From contig CAWGFI010000007.1 of NCBI GenBank assembly GCA_963821845.1, positions 54,729 through 118,728 on the forward strand: DNA of 64,000 nucleotides, given 5' to 3'. Within the stretch, counting starts at the first letter, position 1. Each line of letters opens with the position of its first letter. The notes beneath the pieces are model-generated. The model made no database searches. It worked only from the letters and a program-made list of their open reading frames with translations, and was not told the DNA's origin. Shown piece after piece: positions 21,657 to 59,361 of the stretch. A program made the position numbers and the translations under genes. This DNA comes from an uncultured delta proteobacterium. Its GTDB lineage: Bacteria > Desulfobacterota > Desulfarculia > JACQYL01 > CAWGVV01.

Positions 21657-22256
21657 AGCGGGTAGCCGAAAACAATACCCGCAAGTGCGCCACGGTCCGA
21701 GTATTGGCAAGCCCAATATGCTTCGTCATTCCGCGGCTTGACCGCGGAATCCAGATTCTTAAAAATATCAAATAATTCTGGACCCCGCGATCAAGTCGCG
21801 GGGCGACGAATATTAAAAATGTGGTGTTATCCGAATGTTTAGTCAAAGGATTGGATGAGTAGAGAGATGGCTTGATAGCGGGTAGCCGAAAACAATACCC
21901 GCAAGTGCGCCACGGTCGCGAGTATTGGCAAGCCCAATATGCTTCGTCATTCCGCGGCTTGACCGCAGAATCCAGATTCTTAAAAATATCAAATAATTCT
22001 GGACCCCGCGATCAAGTCGCGGGGCGACGAATATTAAAAATGTGGTGTTATCCGAATGTTTAGTCAAAGGATTGGATGAGTAGAGAGATGGCTTGATAGC
22101 GGGTAGCCGATACCCGCAAGTGCGCCACGGTCACGAGTATTGGCAAGCCCAATATGCTTCGTCATTCCGCGGCTTGACCGCGGAATCCAGATTCTTAAAA
22201 ATATCAAATAATTCTGGACCCCGCGATCAAGTCGCGGGGCGACGAATATTAAAAAT
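21657..22256. repeat. Tandem ~220-bp repeat (about 2.7 copies), each with a CGTC palindrome doublet
   Basis: agcgggtagccg recurs at 21657, 21877 and 22098; doublets at 21724-21808, 21945-22029 and 22160-22244. Confidence 0.93.
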
Positions 22257-30455: not shown

Positions 30456-30562
30456 CGTCGCCCCGCGACCTGTCCACGACGTGTCGGGACTTGATCGCGG
30501 GGTCCATAACCTATTAAATATATTGAAGAACCTGGATTGCCCGGTCAAGCCGGGGAATGACG
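30456..30562. repeat. CGTC palindrome doublet; left arm carries a 21-nt insert
   Basis: cgtcgccccgcgac[ctgtccacgacgtgtcgggac]ttgatcgcggggtcc...ctggattgcccggtcaagccggggaatgacg. Confidence 0.85.
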
Positions 30563-30787
30563 AATTGAGGCGCAGGCGTTTTCTTGTTTGGTCTGGTCAG
30601 GGTTTCACCTTTATCCGTGATAAAAGTCTAAAGCTTTTTGAAAGGGGTTTGGGGGAAACTTTTTCCCGAAAAAGGTTCCCCCATTTTTTAAAAAATCCCC
30701 GCCTCTTTTGTTACTATCCGGTTTGCGTTCGACGCAATAATCGGATAAGGAAAATGCTATTCCTAACAAGTGAAGGTATTCGTATCC

Positions 30788-52377: not shown

Positions 52378-52865
52378 AAAAAAACATCCCGGTCCTGTTA
52401 CTCGTAGAAGATAACCCTGACGACGTGGAACTTACCCGCGTGGCGCTGGACGATAGCAAGCTGGCGAATCTGCTGGTGGTGGTCCGCGACGGTCAGGAAG
52501 CCCTGGACTGGCTCTGGTGCGAAGGCGAGCACAAGGATCGTGACCCCTGCCAGGCCCCCTCGCTGGCGCTGCTCGACCTGAAACTGCCCAAGATAAGCGG
52601 GCTTGAAGTGCTCCGGCGGATGAGATCCGACCCGCGAACCAAATGTATCCCCGTGGTTATTCTGACCTCTTCGCGGGAAGAACAGGATCTCATAGGCGGG
52701 TACAAGATGGGCGCCAACAGCTATATTCAGAAGCCGGTCGACTATCAGCAATTTGTCGAGGCAATCAAGCAGCTCGGGGTCTATTGGATGGTTCTGAATG
52801 AACCGCCGCCGTGCGAAACAGGAGCAAAAACGTATGTCTACACCCATACGCCTTCTTCTGATTGA
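52374..52865 (+). CDS. Single-domain response regulator (Rcp1-like)
   Basis: GTG start overlapping kinase stop; LLVEDNPDD, LLDLKLPK, ANSYIQKPV. Confidence 0.9.
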   Translation: MKKNIPVLLLVEDNPDDVELTRVALDDSKLANLLVVVRDGQEALDWLWCEGEHKDRDPCQAPSLALLDLKLPKISGLEVLRRMRSDPRTKCIPVVILTSSREEQDLIGGYKMGANSYIQKPVDYQQFVEAIKQLGVYWMVLNEPPPCETGAKTYVYTHTPSSD

Positions 52866-54432
52866 GGATAATGACGATGACGCGGCTCTGATTCAGGCGT
52901 TTCTGGAGGAGGGCGGCTTTACGCCCGAAATCCGCCGTGTCCAGACCAGGGAAACCATTCGCGATGCGCTCTCCCGGGGTCCCTGGGACGCGGTCATATC
53001 GGATTACGATCTGCCCGGCTTCGACGGTTTGCAAGCGCTGGCTCTGGCCAAGGAATCGGATGGCGATACGCCTTTTATCATGATCTCCGGGGCCGTGGGT
53101 GAAGAGTTCATCGTGGAAGCCATGCGCGCCGGGGCCCAGGATTTCATATCCAAGGATCATCTGGTGCGGCTCGCGTCGTCTATCAATCGCGAGCTGATCG
53201 AAACCGAAAACCGCCGGGCTCGCCGGCGCGCCGAGCAGGCGCTGGCGGACGAATTGAAGATTCGGTCCACCTTGAACGAGCTGTATCAGCCGCTGATTTC
53301 CCCTTCTTCCAACATGGAAAGCATCGCCCTGGAAGTCCTGAACCGGGCCGGGCTGCTGACCGGCAGTCCGCATGGCTTTGTTTCGACTATCGATCCGATT
53401 AGCCGCGAAAGTATCTGCTATTTCTCGCCCGAAATGCTTCCGGAGGAATGCGACTTTGAAAAAGACCAGCGGAAAAGGTTCGCCGGTGGCGAAGAGGGTC
53501 GATGTCCGGGCCTTTGGGGGTATGCGCTCGATACCGGGAAGACTTTTTTCACCAACGATCCTTCATCCTTCCCGAACAGAACCCCGTCCCCTCCGGGCCA
53601 CGTCCCCATGGAACGATTCCTGTCCGCGCCGGTGAAGCTTGGCGAAGAGTTGGTCGGCCAGATAGCGCTGGCCAACAAGTCCGGCGATTATACGGATCAG
53701 GACGCGGAAGTCCTCCAGCGGGTGGCTCACTACTACGCCCTGGCCATTCAACGGATCAGGAACGAGGACCGGATCAGAGCCTCCCTCAAGGAAAAGGAAG
53801 TGCTCTTGCAGGAGATCCATCACCGAGTTAAAAACAATCTGGCCATCATTATCAGCCTGCTCAACCTCCAGGCCAACCACCTGCGCGACGAACGGGTGAG
53901 GGACGCGTTTCAGGATTGCCAGACCCGTATCCGATCCATGGCCCTGATTCACGAAACCCTGTATCAGTCGGCCAACCTGGCCGAACTGGACCTGGGGCAA
54001 TATATCAGAAACCTGGTGAAAACGCTGTCCGCCGCCTATCCGAACAGCTCTTCGCGCCTGGACTTCGAAATAAAGTCGGACAAAATAAACCTGCCCCTGG
54101 ATTATACGATCCCCTGCGGTTTGATTCTCAACGAGCTTATTTCCAACTCCATCAAGCATGGGTTCCCGACGGGAAACCGGGGCAGGATCGTGGTGACCGC
54201 GCAACAGCAGGACGATGAGATCGCGCTGATCGTGAGTGACAACGGAGTCGGTTTTCCTTCGGATATGGACACCGAGCATTCCAAGACGCTGGGCATGAAC
54301 CTGGTGGCCAAACTGGGCGAAGTGCAGCTCAAGGGCAAGATGGAATTGGGCGGGGAAAGCGGCGCCAAGGTAACCGTACGCTTTAAACGTCCGGAAAGCG
54401 GACCCAGCCGCGGATATAAAAACGGGGATTAG
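52834..54432 (+). CDS. Receiver-GAF-HisKA_2 histidine kinase
   Basis: LLIEDNDDD receiver, GAF, EIHHRVKNN, ELISNSIKHGF, DNGVG. Confidence 0.9.
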   Translation: MSTPIRLLLIEDNDDDAALIQAFLEEGGFTPEIRRVQTRETIRDALSRGPWDAVISDYDLPGFDGLQALALAKESDGDTPFIMISGAVGEEFIVEAMRAGAQDFISKDHLVRLASSINRELIETENRRARRRAEQALADELKIRSTLNELYQPLISPSSNMESIALEVLNRAGLLTGSPHGFVSTIDPISRESICYFSPEMLPEECDFEKDQRKRFAGGEEGRCPGLWGYALDTGKTFFTNDPSSFPNRTPSPPGHVPMERFLSAPVKLGEELVGQIALANKSGDYTDQDAEVLQRVAHYYALAIQRIRNEDRIRASLKEKEVLLQEIHHRVKNNLAIIISLLNLQANHLRDERVRDAFQDCQTRIRSMALIHETLYQSANLAELDLGQYIRNLVKTLSAAYPNSSSRLDFEIKSDKINLPLDYTIPCGLILNELISNSIKHGFPTGNRGRIVVTAQQQDDEIALIVSDNGVGFPSDMDTEHSKTLGMNLVAKLGEVQLKGKMELGGESGAKVTVRFKRPESGPSRGYKNGD

Positions 54433-54544
54433 CGAGAGGCGTGAGGCGCGCCTAGTCAGGATTAGACCACGTAGGGCAGGTGGAGCCGCCAGGCGAAACC
54501 CGCCAAATAAAGGCCGAAGGCCGACCGATTTGGAATCTTAATTT

Positions 54545-55147
54545 CTGGATCCCCCGGTCAAGCCGGGGGATGACGAAAAAAAGACTGGATACCCCGGTCA
54601 AAAAAGGACTGGATACTCCGGTCAATAACCATTCAGGCCGGCAAGGTCATGACAAGTTAAAACCTGGATACCCCGGTCGGGGCCGGGGGATGACGAGGTG
54701 GCTGTTGGTTTCACGCCCCTATTTTGAAATATTCGTCATCCCTCGGGTTTTAATATTCGTCGCCCCGCGACTTGATCGCGGGGTCCAGAATTGGCCGAAT
54801 ATTTGAATAACCTGGATCCCCCGGTCAAGCCGGGGGATGACGAAAAAAGGACTGGATACCCCGGTCAAAAAAGGACTGGATACTCCGGTCAATAACCATT
54901 CAGGCCGGCAAGGTCATGACAAGTTAAAACCTGGATACCCCGGTCGGGGCCGGGGTATGACGAGGTGGCTGTTAGCCGACATACCCGGCTTTAAATTTTC
55001 ACCCTCCTGGTCTTTAAACATTCATTGTCTTCGGTTTTTCAAGTATGCCTCGGCTCTTAAATATTCGTCATGTCGCAGCTCTTAAATATTCGTCATGCCT
55101 CGGACTTTAAAATATTCGTCATCCTCCGGCTTGACCGGGGGATCCAG
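54545..55147. repeat. Composite CGTC palindrome array, left flank of GIY-YIG gene 1
   Basis: Full palindromes near 54545, 54663, 54757, 54812, 54930 and 55117; block 54545-54705 is duplicated at 54812-54972. Confidence 0.93.
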
Positions 55148-55432
55148 TCATAAAATAGTATCATATAAGTCCGTCCAGTCAGGATTCCCGTGTTCAATCA
55201 ATTCCACCTTCCATGCTCTTTTCCACTTCTTTAACCTTTTCTCCCGCTGGATGGCCGAAGCCATAGTGGCGTGCAGTTCGTACCACATCAATTGGTGAAG
55301 GTCGTACCGTTTAGTGAACCCGTCTACCACGCCGTTTTTATGTTCCCACACTCTCTTGATTAAATTCGAAGTCACACCGACGTAAAGGGCGCCGTTTCTC
55401 TTGTTAGTCATGAGGTAGACCGCAGGTTGCAT
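55148..55432 (-). CDS. Small GIY-YIG nuclease (URI/COG2827-like), copy 1
   Basis: AVYLM...LYVGVT, conserved Arg (KRVWEH), Glu (AIQREK), Asn (GNP); 94 aa from ATG at 55432. Confidence 0.93.
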   Translation of the reverse strand: MQPAVYLMTNKRNGALYVGVTSNLIKRVWEHKNGVVDGFTKRYDLHQLMWYELHATMASAIQREKRLKKWKRAWKVELIEHGNPDWTDLYDTIL

Positions 55433-55468
55433 AATCAAGGCTTATCTTATTAGAATACTTAGAATAAC

Positions 55469-55872
55469 CTGGATACCCCGGTCGGGGCCGGGGGATGACG
55501 AAAAAAGGACTGGATACCCCGGTCAATAACCGTGCAGGTCGGCAAGGTCATGACAAGTTAAAACCTGGATCCCCCGGTCAAGCCGGAGGATGACGAGGTG
55601 GTTGTTGGTCGTTATGCGGCTATCTGGAATACTCGTCATGCTTCGGGCCTTAATACTCGTCATGCTTTGGGCCTTAATACTCGTCATGCCTTTGGGCCTT
55701 AATACTCGTCATGCCTCAGGCCTTAGTATTCGTTATGCCTCAGGCCTTAATACTCGTTATGCCTCAGGCCTTAGTATTCGTCGCTCCCCCGATCACTCAA
55801 TAATTCGTCATCCCCCGGCTTGACCGGGGGATCCAGGCTTAGCCGAATACCTGAAGAACCTGGATACCTCGG
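55469..55872. repeat. Composite CGTC palindrome array, right flank of GIY-YIG gene 1, with a six-copy 24-nt tandem at 55628-55772
   Basis: Palindromes at 55469-55500, 55564-55595 and 55806-55836; unit AATACTCGTCATGCCTCAGGCCTT. Confidence 0.93.
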
Positions 55873-55881
55873 GGGGAGTCT

Positions 55882-58272
55882 CTATTTCTCAGGTGTCCTT
55901 AACGCTTTTTTAAATTTTGCCGGGTCGAACCGTATGAGGAAGGAGGTTCCCTGGTTCCGGCTCACATCCAGCGAGCCCTTGAGTTGTCGCTCGATCAGGC
56001 TCACCACCAGTTGCAACCCCAGTTTGCCCGTATTTCGAATGTCCACGTCCGCCGGAAGGCCCACGCCGTTGTCGCTCACTTCCAGCTCCACCTCGCTCTC
56101 GCCGACGGCGCGGCCCCGTATGGTTATCTCGCCCTCGAAAGCGGATGGAAAGGCGTGTTTAAGCGAGTTGGAAATAAGCTCGTTCAGGACCAGTCCGCAG
56201 GGGACCATGCAGTCGGCCGGCAACAGGATCTGCTTGTCGATATCCATGTTCAGGCGCACCCCCCCCCGCACCTCCCCTCCCGAGGGGATTCCGTAGGCGC
56301 TCAGGAGCACATTGGCCAGGCTGCTTACATACTCCTTGAGATGCAGCCGCGAGAAATCCCTGGCCTGATACAGCGATTCGTGGATCAGCGCCATGGACTT
56401 GATCCGGGACTGGCAATCGCGAATGAAAACCTTGGCGTCTTTATCCGGCGCCTTGGCCATCTGCAGATTGAGCAGGCTGTTGATGACCGCCAGGTTGTTT
56501 TTCACGCGGTGGTGAATTTCTCCCAGCAGGGTTTCCCGTTCGGCAAGGGCGGCCCGGAGCTTTTCCTCGTCCTGCTTTTGCCGGGAAACGTCATGGATCA
56601 GCGTGAAATAGCCTTTCACCACTCCGTCATGATCGATAAACGGTATCAGGCTGGTGTTGACATATTTGGGCCCGGCTTTTTTGTAGGGCAAGACGCGTTC
56701 ATAGGCTGCTGGACGGCCTGAAAGCGCCTGGTCGACGTACCCGGAAATAACTTCATACGCCTCTTCGCCCGCGACCTCTCGCACGGTCTTGCCTTGAAGT
56801 TCCTCCACGGGCTGTCCGAACCAATGCTCATAGGCCTTGTTGACGATGACATACCGCTGGTCGCTGTCCACGAACGCCACCAGCGCGGGCAGGCCGTCGA
56901 TCAGCAGCCGCATTTGTTCGCGCTGTTCCCGCAGCGCCTCTTCGGCGGCCTTGCGTTTGGTAATGTCGTTGAAAAGAATGGCCACTTTCCGCTCTTCCGG
57001 CCGCCCCACGGGGAAGGCGTACAAATCGTACCACCGGTTGTCGAGATACTTGGCCGCGTTCGTGAACCGCTCCGGCTCGCCGGTCAGGGCGACGCGGCCG
57101 TAGGTTTCGAACCAGTGGTCCTCATGGTCCGGAACCAGCTCCCGCATTCGTTTCCCCACCGCGTCATGCAGTCCGGTCTGCGCGCCGAAGGCCGGATTCG
57201 TTTCCAGGAAGCGGAAGTCGATGGCGCGGTCACTCTCGTCAAAAAGCACCTCGACAATGCAGAACCCCTCGTCGATCTTCTCGAACAGCGTATAATAGCG
57301 CTCCTCGGTTCGCAGCAACGTTTCCTCGGCGGCCCTGCGGGCGGTCATGTCGATTATCGAGCCGATAACCTGCGTGACTCCGCCTTTGGGGCCCCGCGCG
57401 AAAACGGCGTTCCTGCTCATGACCCTGATCCAGCGGTCGTCGGCCGTCTTGAAACGGACCTCGAGTTCGAAAACGTCGTTTTCATCGGCTTTAACCAGGA
57501 GTCTTTGCTGCGCGTTCAGTCTGGGCCGGTCGTCGGGATGAAAAAGGCCGAAAAACCGCCGTTCGCTCATGGAGTTCAGCGTTTCCAGGGTGTACCCTGT
57601 AATGGCCGTGTACTGCGGATTGATGAAGACGACCTTGCTCGTGGTAAAATCGTAGATGAAAAGACCGCTCAGGGAGGACATCAGCGCCTTGTTGACAAAG
57701 GCCTCGCTTTCCCGCAAAGCCTCCTCGGCTCGCTTGCGAGCGGTAATGTCGACAAGGTTGACCCGAATCAGTTCTTTATTTTCGGCTACCGTCATGCCTT
57801 CCACGTGGAAGTAGCGGGCGCCGCCATCCCTGTCCCGTTTGATCAGCCTCACTTCGCATGAGTTTTTGGTCTGAGACTCATGGAGGCCGGTCAGGAGCGA
57901 GAGCCAGTTTTCCCGGTAATCCGCGTCCACGTATTGAGCGAACGTTCTATTGATCAGCCTTGCTCGTTCGATGCCCAGCAGGAGCGCGGCGGTCAGATTG
58001 GCTTCTTTGATTATCCCCGAGGCGTTCATGATAAGGTAGCCCACGGGCGCCAGTTCGAACAGATCGAAGTACTTGAGCCGCGATTCCTGCAAGTCTTCCT
58101 GGGCCTGCCGCAGCTCTTCGTTCTGCAGTTCGAGTTCCACCTGGTGAACCTCAAGCTCGTACACGATCTTTTCCACGTCGCTCCAGGGAATTTTTCTGAG
58201 GTCCGGCCTGGTCGAACGGGTTTTTAGTTTCTTTTCGGCCTTCCGGCGCAATCCATCGACTGGTTTTGTCAT
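55882..58272 (-). CDS. Multi-PAS HisKA_2 histidine kinase
   Basis: ELEVHQVELELQNEEL leader, four PAS-like repeats, EIHHRVKNN, ELISNSLKHAF. Confidence 0.9.
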   Translation of the reverse strand: MTKPVDGLRRKAEKKLKTRSTRPDLRKIPWSDVEKIVYELEVHQVELELQNEELRQAQEDLQESRLKYFDLFELAPVGYLIMNASGIIKEANLTAALLLGIERARLINRTFAQYVDADYRENWLSLLTGLHESQTKNSCEVRLIKRDRDGGARYFHVEGMTVAENKELIRVNLVDITARKRAEEALRESEAFVNKALMSSLSGLFIYDFTTSKVVFINPQYTAITGYTLETLNSMSERRFFGLFHPDDRPRLNAQQRLLVKADENDVFELEVRFKTADDRWIRVMSRNAVFARGPKGGVTQVIGSIIDMTARRAAEETLLRTEERYYTLFEKIDEGFCIVEVLFDESDRAIDFRFLETNPAFGAQTGLHDAVGKRMRELVPDHEDHWFETYGRVALTGEPERFTNAAKYLDNRWYDLYAFPVGRPEERKVAILFNDITKRKAAEEALREQREQMRLLIDGLPALVAFVDSDQRYVIVNKAYEHWFGQPVEELQGKTVREVAGEEAYEVISGYVDQALSGRPAAYERVLPYKKAGPKYVNTSLIPFIDHDGVVKGYFTLIHDVSRQKQDEEKLRAALAERETLLGEIHHRVKNNLAVINSLLNLQMAKAPDKDAKVFIRDCQSRIKSMALIHESLYQARDFSRLHLKEYVSSLANVLLSAYGIPSGGEVRGGVRLNMDIDKQILLPADCMVPCGLVLNELISNSLKHAFPSAFEGEITIRGRAVGESEVELEVSDNGVGLPADVDIRNTGKLGLQLVVSLIERQLKGSLDVSRNQGTSFLIRFDPAKFKKALRTPEK

Positions 58273-58548
58273 CTGCCTACCTTTGAGTTTGCTTGCTCGG
58301 GGCTCCAAGTCCTATAAGTTCATTCAATGGAGAGAGATTCTGCAAGCAAGCCATGGGTGGAAAGAACAGTCGCCTTGCAGATCTATCAGTATACCGAATT
58401 TTTCGGCCTAATCAAAGGCTGTTGCTTTTTTTATCACCGCCCTGTCGCGGAATTCGGAATATTTTTCCTTTTATTCCCGCCAAGATTGAGGAGATACGTT
58501 CTTTTCCGGGGACGCAAGACTGAATTTATGTTTATGTTCTTCTCTTTT

Positions 58549-59361
58549 CCGGACCCCGCGATCAAGTCGCGGGGCGACGAAGTGGGAACGCGTTTGCGAT
58601 TCATTCTTTACTTGGGCGTTTCTCCGATCCAGCCCTTTTTCCTGGACCCCGCGATCAAGTCGCGGGGCGACGGTGATGAACGTCTGTGCCGTTCTGCGCG
58701 CTGTCTGCTCCTTGTAACCTGAACTGGTTTTCACTATCCCCAATTTTTCATGCCCAGTAATGCTTCCCCTCCTCGTCATTCCGCGACTTGATCGCGGAAT
58801 CCAGGCGATTTTATTCTTCATTTACCAATCGACTACATATTGAAATTCAACGACAAATATCCGGATATAAATCCTGCCAACAGGGATTACCACGTTCGAT
58901 TAGTTCCAGTTTCCAGGCTCTTTTCCACTCCTTCAATCGTTTCTCCCGCTGAATGGCTGTTTCCATGGTAGCATGGATTTCATACCAGACGAGTCGATGA
59001 GTATCGTAACGGTTAGTAAATCCCTCTACCACGTGATTCTTGTGTTCCCATATTCTCTTAATTAAATTCGAGGTTACACCCACATAAAGTGTGCCGTTTC
59101 GTCTGTTTGCCAGTATGTATACCGCCGGTTGCTTATACATTGCCCTTTTTCTGGACCCCGCGATCAAGTCGCGGGGCGACGAAAGTGAATACTCGGGATT
59201 AATATTTCCTTTTCCTTAAAAATGCGCGGAACTGTCGAATACTTCAGTCCGCTCCTTCCCGACAATTTATTGGACTTCCCCCCTTCGTCATTCCGCATGG
59301 TATGGAACTCGCCGCCCAACCGCCCCCCCTCGTCATTCCGCGGCTTGACCGCGGAATCCAG
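58549..59361. mobile_element. Putative GIY-YIG/CGTC-palindrome element 2
   Basis: Palindromes at 58549-58579, 58642-58672, 58774-58804, 59151-59181 and 59331-59361 surround the nuclease gene; mobility is inferred. Confidence 0.55.
58847..59140 (-). CDS. Small GIY-YIG nuclease, copy 2
   Basis: AVYIL...LYVGVT, same catalytic residues; about 75% identical to copy 1 by manual alignment (23 differences in 93 positions). Confidence 0.93.
   Translation of the reverse strand: MYKQPAVYILANRRNGTLYVGVTSNLIKRIWEHKNHVVEGFTNRYDTHRLVWYEIHATMETAIQREKRLKEWKRAWKLELIERGNPCWQDLYPDICR

Follow-up and report, generated by a model that had tools for sequence, protein, structure and literature searches.

The window analysed here, a stretch of 64,000 nucleotides of a bacterial genome, contains two convergent sensor-kinase genes, which the ORF list places at 52798-54432 on the forward strand and at 55882-58308 on the reverse strand. 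Most of the gap between them (54433-55881) consists of copies of one 32-nt hairpin unit, and a motif search found the core motif 22 times in the window against 0.35 occurrences expected. Each copy is here called an arm, with its CGTC end as head and its CCAG end as tail; on the forward strand a right arm reads CTGGA..GACGA and a left arm TCGTC..TCCAG. A feature parse combined with repeat finders resolved the array at 54545-55872 into three super-units, I (54545-54811), II (54812-55468) and III (55469-55859), followed by a truncated arm (Table 1). Each begins with a right arm, followed by half-arms of 24-nt period (one or two), by the linker GGCAAGGTCATGACAAGTTAAAAC and by a second right arm; then come a 12-nt head-side linker (GGTGGYTGTTRG), a run of head-only TCGTCAT copies, a left arm and a tail-to-tail slot. 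The full arms, six right and three left, are 32-33 nt long, and the slot holds 23 nt in super-units I and III and, in super-unit II, a GIY-YIG gene with its leader (55148-55468).

A tandem array of repeating units, in which the right-hand module occurs three times (at 54545, 54812 and 55469), had been claimed in the initial annotation, and all of its components were recovered where it had placed them. The module runs from the first right arm of a super-unit to the head-side linker. Its first two copies are 99% identical over 162 nt, while the third, a variant 94% identical over 79 nt, has a single half-arm and its two arm types in exchanged positions. The "abortive CGTC starts" of the same annotation correspond to 24-25-nt tandem repeats, placed by TRF at 55045-55131 (3.4 copies) and 55628-55782 (6.4 copies). 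These head-only TCGTCAT "stutters", with a period of 24-25 nt, are present in one copy in unit I, two to three in unit II and eight in unit III. The linker GGCAAGGTCATGACAAGTTAAAAC occurs three times, always within the array locus and nowhere else in the genome, which indicates that the three super-units are local duplicates.

Table 1. Coordinates of the hairpin array and of the two ssn units, as positions in the window
Feature	Position	Strand	Evidence or content
Super-unit I	54545-54811		feature parse, repeat families, TRF 54576-54625, SRM pattern matches
I, right arm	54545-54576		
I, half-arms	54585-54603, 54609-54627		
I, locus-specific linker	54640-54663		
I, right arm with 6-nt loop	54664-54696		
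I, head-side linker GGTGGCTGTTGG	54697-54708		
I, head-only TCGTCAT	54733-54739		
I, left arm, CGTCGC class	54757-54788		
I, 23-nt tail-to-tail spacer	54789-54811		
Super-unit II up to left arm	54812-55147		feature parse, repeat finders
II, right arm	54812-54843		
II, half-arms	54852-54870, 54876-54894		
II, linker	54907-54930		
II, right arm with 6-nt loop	54931-54963		
II, head-side linker GGTGGCTGTTAG	54964-54975		
II, 25-nt TCGTCAT stutter	55045-55131		
II, left arm	55116-55147		
ssn gene 1, 94 aa, single-domain GIY-YIG	55148-55432	-	ORF; Pfam; Y6/Y17/E64; homologues
Gene 1 leader, 36 nt	55433-55468	-	arm-proximal 24 nt (55445-55468) homologous to doublet spacers
Super-unit III	55469-55872		feature parse, repeat finders, SRM pattern matches
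III, right arm with 6-nt loop	55469-55501		
III, half-arm	55510-55528		
III, linker	55541-55564		
III, right arm	55565-55596		
III, head-side linker GGTGGTTGTTGG	55597-55608		
III, eight head-only TCGTYAT units, 24-nt period	55609-55804		
III, left arm	55805-55836		
III, 23-nt spacer	55837-55859		
Truncated right arm, end of super-unit III	55860-55872		
Second ssn unit	58773-59182	-	left arm 58773-58804; gene 2 58847-59140; CGTCGC-class right arm 59151-59182
Empty tail-to-tail doublet	30476-30563		spacer AACCTATTAAATATATTGAAGAAC at 30508-30531; right arm from 30532

Gene 1 starts with an ATG at 55432, and its TGA stop (55148-55150) directly adjoins the tail of the left arm. Pfam assigns residues 6-77 of the protein to GIY-YIG (E=1.8e-15) with no other family match, the NCBIfam search returned no specific family, and a search of solved structures gave the UvrC GIY-YIG domain as sole match (E=0.0016) and no Ssn structure. 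A promoter and terminator scan yielded nothing above shuffled expectation and no sigma-70-like promoter ahead of the gene. A second gene, of 97 aa and about 75% identical to the first (tblastn), lies 3.4 kb away in the same arm-gene-arm arrangement. Its arms are identical to the two arm sequences that are most abundant in the genome, and each of the two genes stands among arms of a different stem type.

Small GIY-YIG proteins of CDD family cd10448, named Ssn, have been described as the partner of such hairpin repeats (Chenal et al. 2025, Nat Commun 16:2388, PMC11893778). The N. meningitidis SsnA, of 94 aa, binds the hairpin repeat NTS solely as single-stranded DNA, cuts single-stranded DNA a few nucleotides 5' of the NTS or CGTC tag, and limits transformation by NTS-carrying DNA; 42% of the surveyed Ssn homologues have such motifs on both sides, and the NTS-ssnA-NTS arrangement was likened by its authors to an insertion sequence (PMC11893778). 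Gene 1 possesses Y6, Y17 and E64, the same residue numbers as those mutated in SsnA (Y8, Y19 and E66 in gene 2), and is flanked on both sides by inverted SRM hairpins whose CCAG tails face the gene. Judged by size, domain, catalytic residues, flanking motif and architecture, gene 1 most probably encodes an SsnA-type enzyme, and by analogy its protein would cleave single-stranded DNA near the hairpin. The general notion underlying the initial annotation, the pairing of a nuclease with its own hairpin repeats, is correct and was already published (PMC11893778).

Hairpin arms across the genome and among homologues

Read from the head, the arm consensus is CGTC, ATTCCGCGA, CTTGA, TCGCGGAAT and CCAG, that is, a 9-bp stem closed by a 5-nt loop. 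About 170 copies in the genome have this 9-bp stem and 5-nt loop, and 22 have an 8-bp stem and a 4-nt loop. CGTC-tagged REPs have been defined by 8-9-bp stems starting with AT, 4-5-nt loops and a CCA tail, and were reported without a dedicated enzyme (Di Nocera et al. 2013, PMC3733652); the arms show all of these traits, with the unpaired CGTC tag and a high copy number. Stem sequences vary among copies while complementarity is kept, compensatory double changes at 5 of the 9 stem pairs amounting to 106 cells against 31.9 +/- 6.6 in shuffles, for copies which were themselves chosen for pairing. The Rfam scan of 54300-56000 gave only chance hairpin matches, far below threshold.

The published SRM search pattern matches eight of the nine full arms of the array, including both arms which flank gene 1 (55117-55147 on the forward and 55469-55500 on the reverse strand), as well as 58774-58804 beside gene 2. 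Genome-wide, it gave 168 matches against 20-33 in controls. The CGTCGC-class arms (e.g. those at 54757 and 59151) are not matched by this pattern, and the exact NTS consensus is absent from the genome, the hairpin of the host being a variant. Overall, arms number approximately 194-290, against 23-69 in reversed-sequence controls: a structure-aware scan found 194 canonical-loop copies at 133 loci of the 4.05-Mb genome, and a broader one 290 copies, compared with 69 in the reversed sequence.

Two kinds of pairing occur among the arms. The genome contains 36 tail-to-tail doublets, whose AT-rich spacers fall into a class of 14-17 nt (consensus AAGTATTTGAAAATA) and one of 22-28 nt (consensus AAGTTATTAAATACTTTGAAGAAC). 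In nearly all of these doublets one arm belongs to the CGTCAT class and the other is of the CGTCGC class or has a GAAA loop. The short-spacer doublets (about 15 nt) are enclosed in palindromic elements, about 125 bp long and bearing outer inverted repeats (TGTTGACAAA). About 12 head-to-head doublets share the 12-nt GGTGGTTGTTGG linker, and the array at 54545-55872 alternates both kinds of junction. Both kinds of 24-nt partial-arm repeat are located on the head side of a full arm. Head-side stutters of a similar kind were also observed at C6:331024 and C2:197591. Moreover, tandem arrays are about 4 times enriched near arms (9 of 191 arrays, against 1.1% of the genome), which fits slippage at hairpin-stalled or nicked DNA.

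Homologues of the gene 1 protein, 80 of them at 57-72% identity, were collected from many phyla. An arm in the same orientation, with its tail toward the gene, lies within 120 nt on at least one side in 61 of the 80, and on both sides in 30. The exact Neisseria NTS consensus was found at 8 of the 80 loci (homologues at 57-66% identity). Arm counts in 30 relatives were compared with the presence of Ssn, but the loose pattern was too noisy for a correlation. The Tex protein of the host matched both Nitrospirota and Desulfobacterota-type MAGs, at 61-74% identity, a mixture that does not firmly place the host.

These data bear on the view that the hairpins are REPs moved by a tyrosine transposase of the RAYT/IS200 type, or mere RNA terminators or stabilisers, with the GIY-YIG gene as an unrelated passenger. 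Covariation cannot, in fact, distinguish DNA from RNA hairpins, and the position of the array between convergent genes is typical of REPs; an RNA role, if any, would nevertheless be an additional one. Y1_Tnp genes do exist in the genome (C23:213490 and C23:217948), but no arms lie near them, and a Y1 HUH transposase flanked by repeats, by which a REPIN-RAYT system is recognised, was not found. Moreover, RAYTs pair with GTAG-tagged REPs and not with CGTC-tagged ones (PMC3733652), while both GIY-YIG paralogues and 61/80 homologues are flanked by arms. Taken as a whole, this view is highly improbable.

The array in a second assembly

An exact-protein look-up retrieved a second assembly of the region (ENA sample ERZ25039495, contig_91228, 43 kb); further look-ups with the neighbouring proteins and the gene 2 protein found no additional sequence of this contig. 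Its left flank is 99.96% identical to the window over 2525 nt, and gene 1 with its leader is identical at 321/321 positions. Super-unit II is also identical save for one extra 24-nt half-arm (three half-arms there). Unit I is without the 119-nt inner module, one extra super-unit follows gene 1, so that four super-units are present against three in the window, and an extra arm plus 45 nt, 77 nt in total, is found beside gene 2. Over the 19 kb compared, all indels of at least 6 nt lie at arms, between direct repeats, with the lone exception of a 12-nt difference in a C-rich tract. The structural differences at the repeats are arm-to-arm indels with no new insertions, and no gene-versus-spacer difference was seen between the two assemblies.

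Since the second assembly carries the same array, the array exists independently of the assembly of the window. Nevertheless, either the population is variable in copy number or one of the assemblies has it wrong, and assembly error in either of the two could account for part of the apparent dynamics. That the array of the window is partly an artefact, with the number or order of units wrong and the near-identical 162-nt segments collapsed or mis-joined, is a possibility to which a minor weight should be given. The simple first unit, the three half-arms and the fourth super-unit of contig_91228 speak for it; the unit types, gene 1 and its leader are, however, identical in both assemblies, and contig_91228 carries homopolymer-type errors of its own. 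Furthermore, the two sequences diverge by 1-16% in several patches elsewhere, and the contigs may represent different strains. A divergent tract of 1.5 kb starting at the right edge of the array in the second assembly was considered as a recombination boundary and rejected, given that similar patches occur elsewhere along the contig.

Spacers, leader and the origin of the empty doublets

According to the initial annotation, spacer ends similar to the upstream end of the nuclease gene occur at 55843-55859 and before 30532, suggesting that empty doublets are internal deletions of the gene-bearing unit. When the spacers were aligned with the gene-1 leader, the similarity exceeded that of shuffled AT-rich controls. 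It was significant for the spacers of unit I (p=0.0026) and unit III (p=0.0017) and for the doublet before 30532, a typical long-spacer doublet (p=0.001-0.002), and both of the similar ends were thereby borne out. For 20 long spacers elsewhere, p was 0.005-0.014 when shuffles served as the control and 0.012-0.038 against genomic windows matched for GC, and an arm-anchored weight matrix gave p=0.010. A weaker TTGAARA-like motif also follows the tails of arms outside doublets (PWM p=0.026), so that the similarity is partly explained by an extension of the arm. No similarity to the spacers was detected in the flanks of gene 2 (p=0.1-0.9), and in four other genomes having a gene-bearing and an empty unit in one locus the spacer and the leader are unrelated.

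The spacer of unit III aligns collinearly with the final 23-24 nt of the leader (36 nt), and a spacer-like stretch of 24 nt (55445-55468) is retained between the start of gene 1 and the right arm, the gene-bearing and empty states differing by the coding sequence plus about 12 nt. The earlier proposal that the gene replaces the spacer stands as regards the slot, which holds 23 nt in the neighbouring units, but not as regards the spacer, which has been kept beside the gene. As copies of a single local unit, the units with an empty 23-nt spacer and the one that bears the gene have a common ancestry.

Whether the gene was lost from the one state or gained by the other is a different matter. If the arm-gene-arm unit were an autonomous element, the empty doublets could have arisen from it by internal deletion, in the way MITEs derive from insertion sequences, a reading that is tentative and rather doubtful. 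The homology of the spacers to the arm-proximal 23-24 nt of the leader (p about 0.002-0.01, the long spacers elsewhere included) is in its favour, together with the age of the arm-gene-arm arrangement, which is conserved across phyla and makes the gene-bearing state no local accident, and the exact match of the gene 2 arms to the two commonest arm types. Empty spacers, at 15 or 23-26 nt, are also similar in size to the non-coding interior of typical gene units (about 12-19 nt plus 0-15 nt). Nevertheless, a complete spacer beside gene 1 suits insertion equally well, the shared motif is not restricted to doublets, and the similarity does not extend to the gene 2 flanks or to the four other genomes. 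Many doublets belong to longer palindromic elements with outer inverted repeats of their own. The differences between the two assemblies all involve direct repeats, none of them being a gene-versus-spacer polymorphism; since the arms flanking gene 1 are inverted, homologous recombination between them would invert the gene without deleting it. What has held of the deletion claim is the homology between spacer and leader, with which either direction of change would agree.

The converse, in which an existing empty doublet received a bare gene cassette, made up of the coding sequence and about 12 nt, at the junction of arm tail and spacer, is unlikely, and less probable than deletion. The 36-nt leader would then be a typical leader of about 12 nt plus a full 24-nt spacer, the family mode being 12-19 nt, and the stop codon of gene 1 adjoins the arm exactly. 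Among the homologues, however, a distance of 0-3 nt between stop codon and CTGG is frequent, gene 1 being no exception, and the nearest related genome has two homologues with the same TGA-CTGGAT junction; such abutment in distant genomes with compact units points to gene and arm being inherited together. Moreover, neither an arm-less cassette nor a target-site signature was found. An empty-site comparison was attempted with the nearest genome, which belongs to another genus (flanking kinase at 41% identity) and is without an orthologous site. In a Rhodanobacteraceae locus the trailer equals the empty spacer at 30/30 positions, which seemed to be evidence for deletion; a degenerate arm lies between the two, and the locus, a tandem array of doublets one slot of which holds the gene, was rejected as such evidence.

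Ssn and the related repeat systems

The best explanation for the locus, with a probability of roughly 0.8 on the sequence comparisons made here, is an Ssn nuclease gene within a cluster of its own SRM hairpin repeats, of the CGTC-tagged REP type, which form a BIME-like array. Gene 1 occupies the conserved slot of its family, between two inverted arms with CCAG tails facing the gene, and the 1.3-kb array arose by local tandem duplication of one super-unit. It probably continues to vary through unequal recombination or replication slippage, acting between direct-orientation arms and also between 24-nt partial arms. The predicted cut sites lie on the forward strand to the left of the three left arms and on the reverse strand to the right of the six right arms, and cuts would thus fall on both strands inside every head-to-head linker. 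Ssn may, in addition, have a role in spreading or reshaping the repeats. A stronger version, in which Ssn spreads or reshapes the tail-to-tail doublets as non-autonomous relatives of the arm-ssn-arm unit and the head-side 24-nt stutters are scars of nick repair, is speculative and on balance improbable, if somewhat less so than the insertion of a bare cassette. It would account for the stutters being found solely on the CGTC side, because Ssn is reported to cut there and the nicks would be repaired repeatedly. If true, Ssn/SRM would be the GIY-YIG counterpart of REPIN-RAYT.

The locus is a further example of the Ssn system published in 2025 and not a new kind of element. It shares with the Ssn/SRM of Chenal et al. 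(2025) the 94-aa single-domain GIY-YIG protein with Y6/Y17/E64, the inverted CGTC-headed hairpins on both sides and the hundreds of hairpin copies in the genome, many of them clustered. It differs in that the hairpin is a variant (9-bp stem and CTTGA loop, with no exact NTS in the genome), that a second arm class (CGTCGC...) escapes the published pattern, that two paralogues lie 3.4 kb apart, gene 1 in a three-unit duplicated array with 24-nt partial-arm repeats, and that the host is an uncultured environmental bacterium. With the CGTC-REP superfamily, which includes Neisseria dRS3 and Rickettsia RPE-4/6 (PMC3733652), it has in common the CGTC tag, AT-starting 9-bp stems, the 5-nt loop and the CCA tail, as well as dimers of two different arm types, conserved spacers and a site between convergent genes. 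No dedicated enzyme was found for that superfamily (PMC3733652), whereas the present nuclease gene, like those of the Ssn paper, is contained in a dimer.

The REPIN-RAYT systems and BIMEs of enterobacteria and pseudomonads also present hairpins of alternating orientation, conserved linkers, an enzyme gene between inverted repeats, and doublets far outnumbering the gene; gene 2 is likewise flanked by the commonest repeat types, and both junction types alternate in E. coli BIMEs as in the present array. In contrast, the enzyme is here a GIY-YIG nuclease instead of an HUH tyrosine transposase, and the tag is CGTC, not GTAG. To our knowledge, no strand-transfer activity of Ssn has been described. 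The likeness to MITEs lies in short palindromic elements which share their ends with the gene-bearing unit, and in the 15-nt-spacer doublets contained in elements of about 125 bp with the outer TGTTGACAAA repeats. Neither a transposase nor a target-site duplication was identified here, however, and the similarity between spacer and leader is modest and limited to gene 1.

As regards the biology of the family, a hairpin variant with a 9-bp stem and CTTGA loop and a CGTCGC arm class missed by the published pattern are added to the Ssn picture. Furthermore, the two paralogues with their different arm sets constitute a natural pair for testing how hairpin sequence is read by very small enzymes. 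Finally, two assemblies of near-identical DNA which differ at the arms offer a place to ask whether ordinary repeat recombination or the nuclease is responsible for such changes.

Two ssn genes and their arms

The second ssn paralogue (gene 2) is flanked on either side by an arm, the CGTC-tagged hairpin repeat, and both arms are exact copies of the two commonest arm sequences of the genome (25 and 14 copies), with CGCG-type stems, whereas ssn gene 1 is surrounded by arms of the rarer type, with CCGG stems. This difference in arm type suggests that one genome holds two enzyme-hairpin pairs.

Features discussed in this section and their coordinates
Feature	Location	Source
Second ssn paralogue with flanking arms	window 58773-59182	
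Tandem array, three copies of a 221-bp unit	window 21724-22244 = C7:76452-76972	
Y1 (IS200/RAYT-type) transposase genes (n=2)	C23:213490-213813; C23:217948-218289	
Tandem doublet array with ssn gene	L024 2264-2930	Rhodanobacteraceae MAG

Differences between the two assemblies

At window position 59150, directly upstream of gene 2, the other assembly (ENA contig_91228, L185) is longer by 77 nt: the right arm is present there in two identical copies, and a further 45 nt accompany the additional one. The difference is a direct-repeat indel at an arm. At 55886-57400 the C-terminal half of the sensor-kinase gene adjoining the array is 77-94% identical between the window and that assembly (L104/L185), with approximately 100% identity on both sides, the variant being 87% identical to a paralogue at C20:14546-15513. 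This tract is a strain mosaic or a paralogue conversion and has no specific tie to the array, since comparable divergent patches are present at ~47.1, 49.1-49.6 and 50.6 kb.

Doublets elsewhere in the genome and in other lineages

The 221-bp units each comprise one tail-to-tail doublet, with a 23-nt spacer common to all three (ATTCTTAAAAATATCAAATAATT), and ~130 nt of other sequence, forming a second doublet array made by local duplication. Doublets with 15-nt spacers sit within ~125-bp palindromic elements (e.g. C6:45462, C16:152280, C12:118492), bounded by outer inverted repeats TGTTGACAAA / TTTGTCAACA; these elements are MITE-like, each with two different arm types. No CGTC arms were found within several kb of either Y1 transposase gene.

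Same-class relatives (G009, G012, G017, G021, G029) carry Ssn-like homologues that are more distant (38-51% identity; L094-L099, L102) and are flanked by another hairpin repeat, (T)GTCATTGCGAG...GCAATCTC. The spacer of this repeat, too, is rich in AT and includes a TTGAAAT motif. In the Rhodanobacteraceae MAG, three to four tail-to-tail doublets stand in tandem, linked by ATAAAAAATAC, and the ssn gene occupies one slot; an array of this kind is present in a distant lineage as well.
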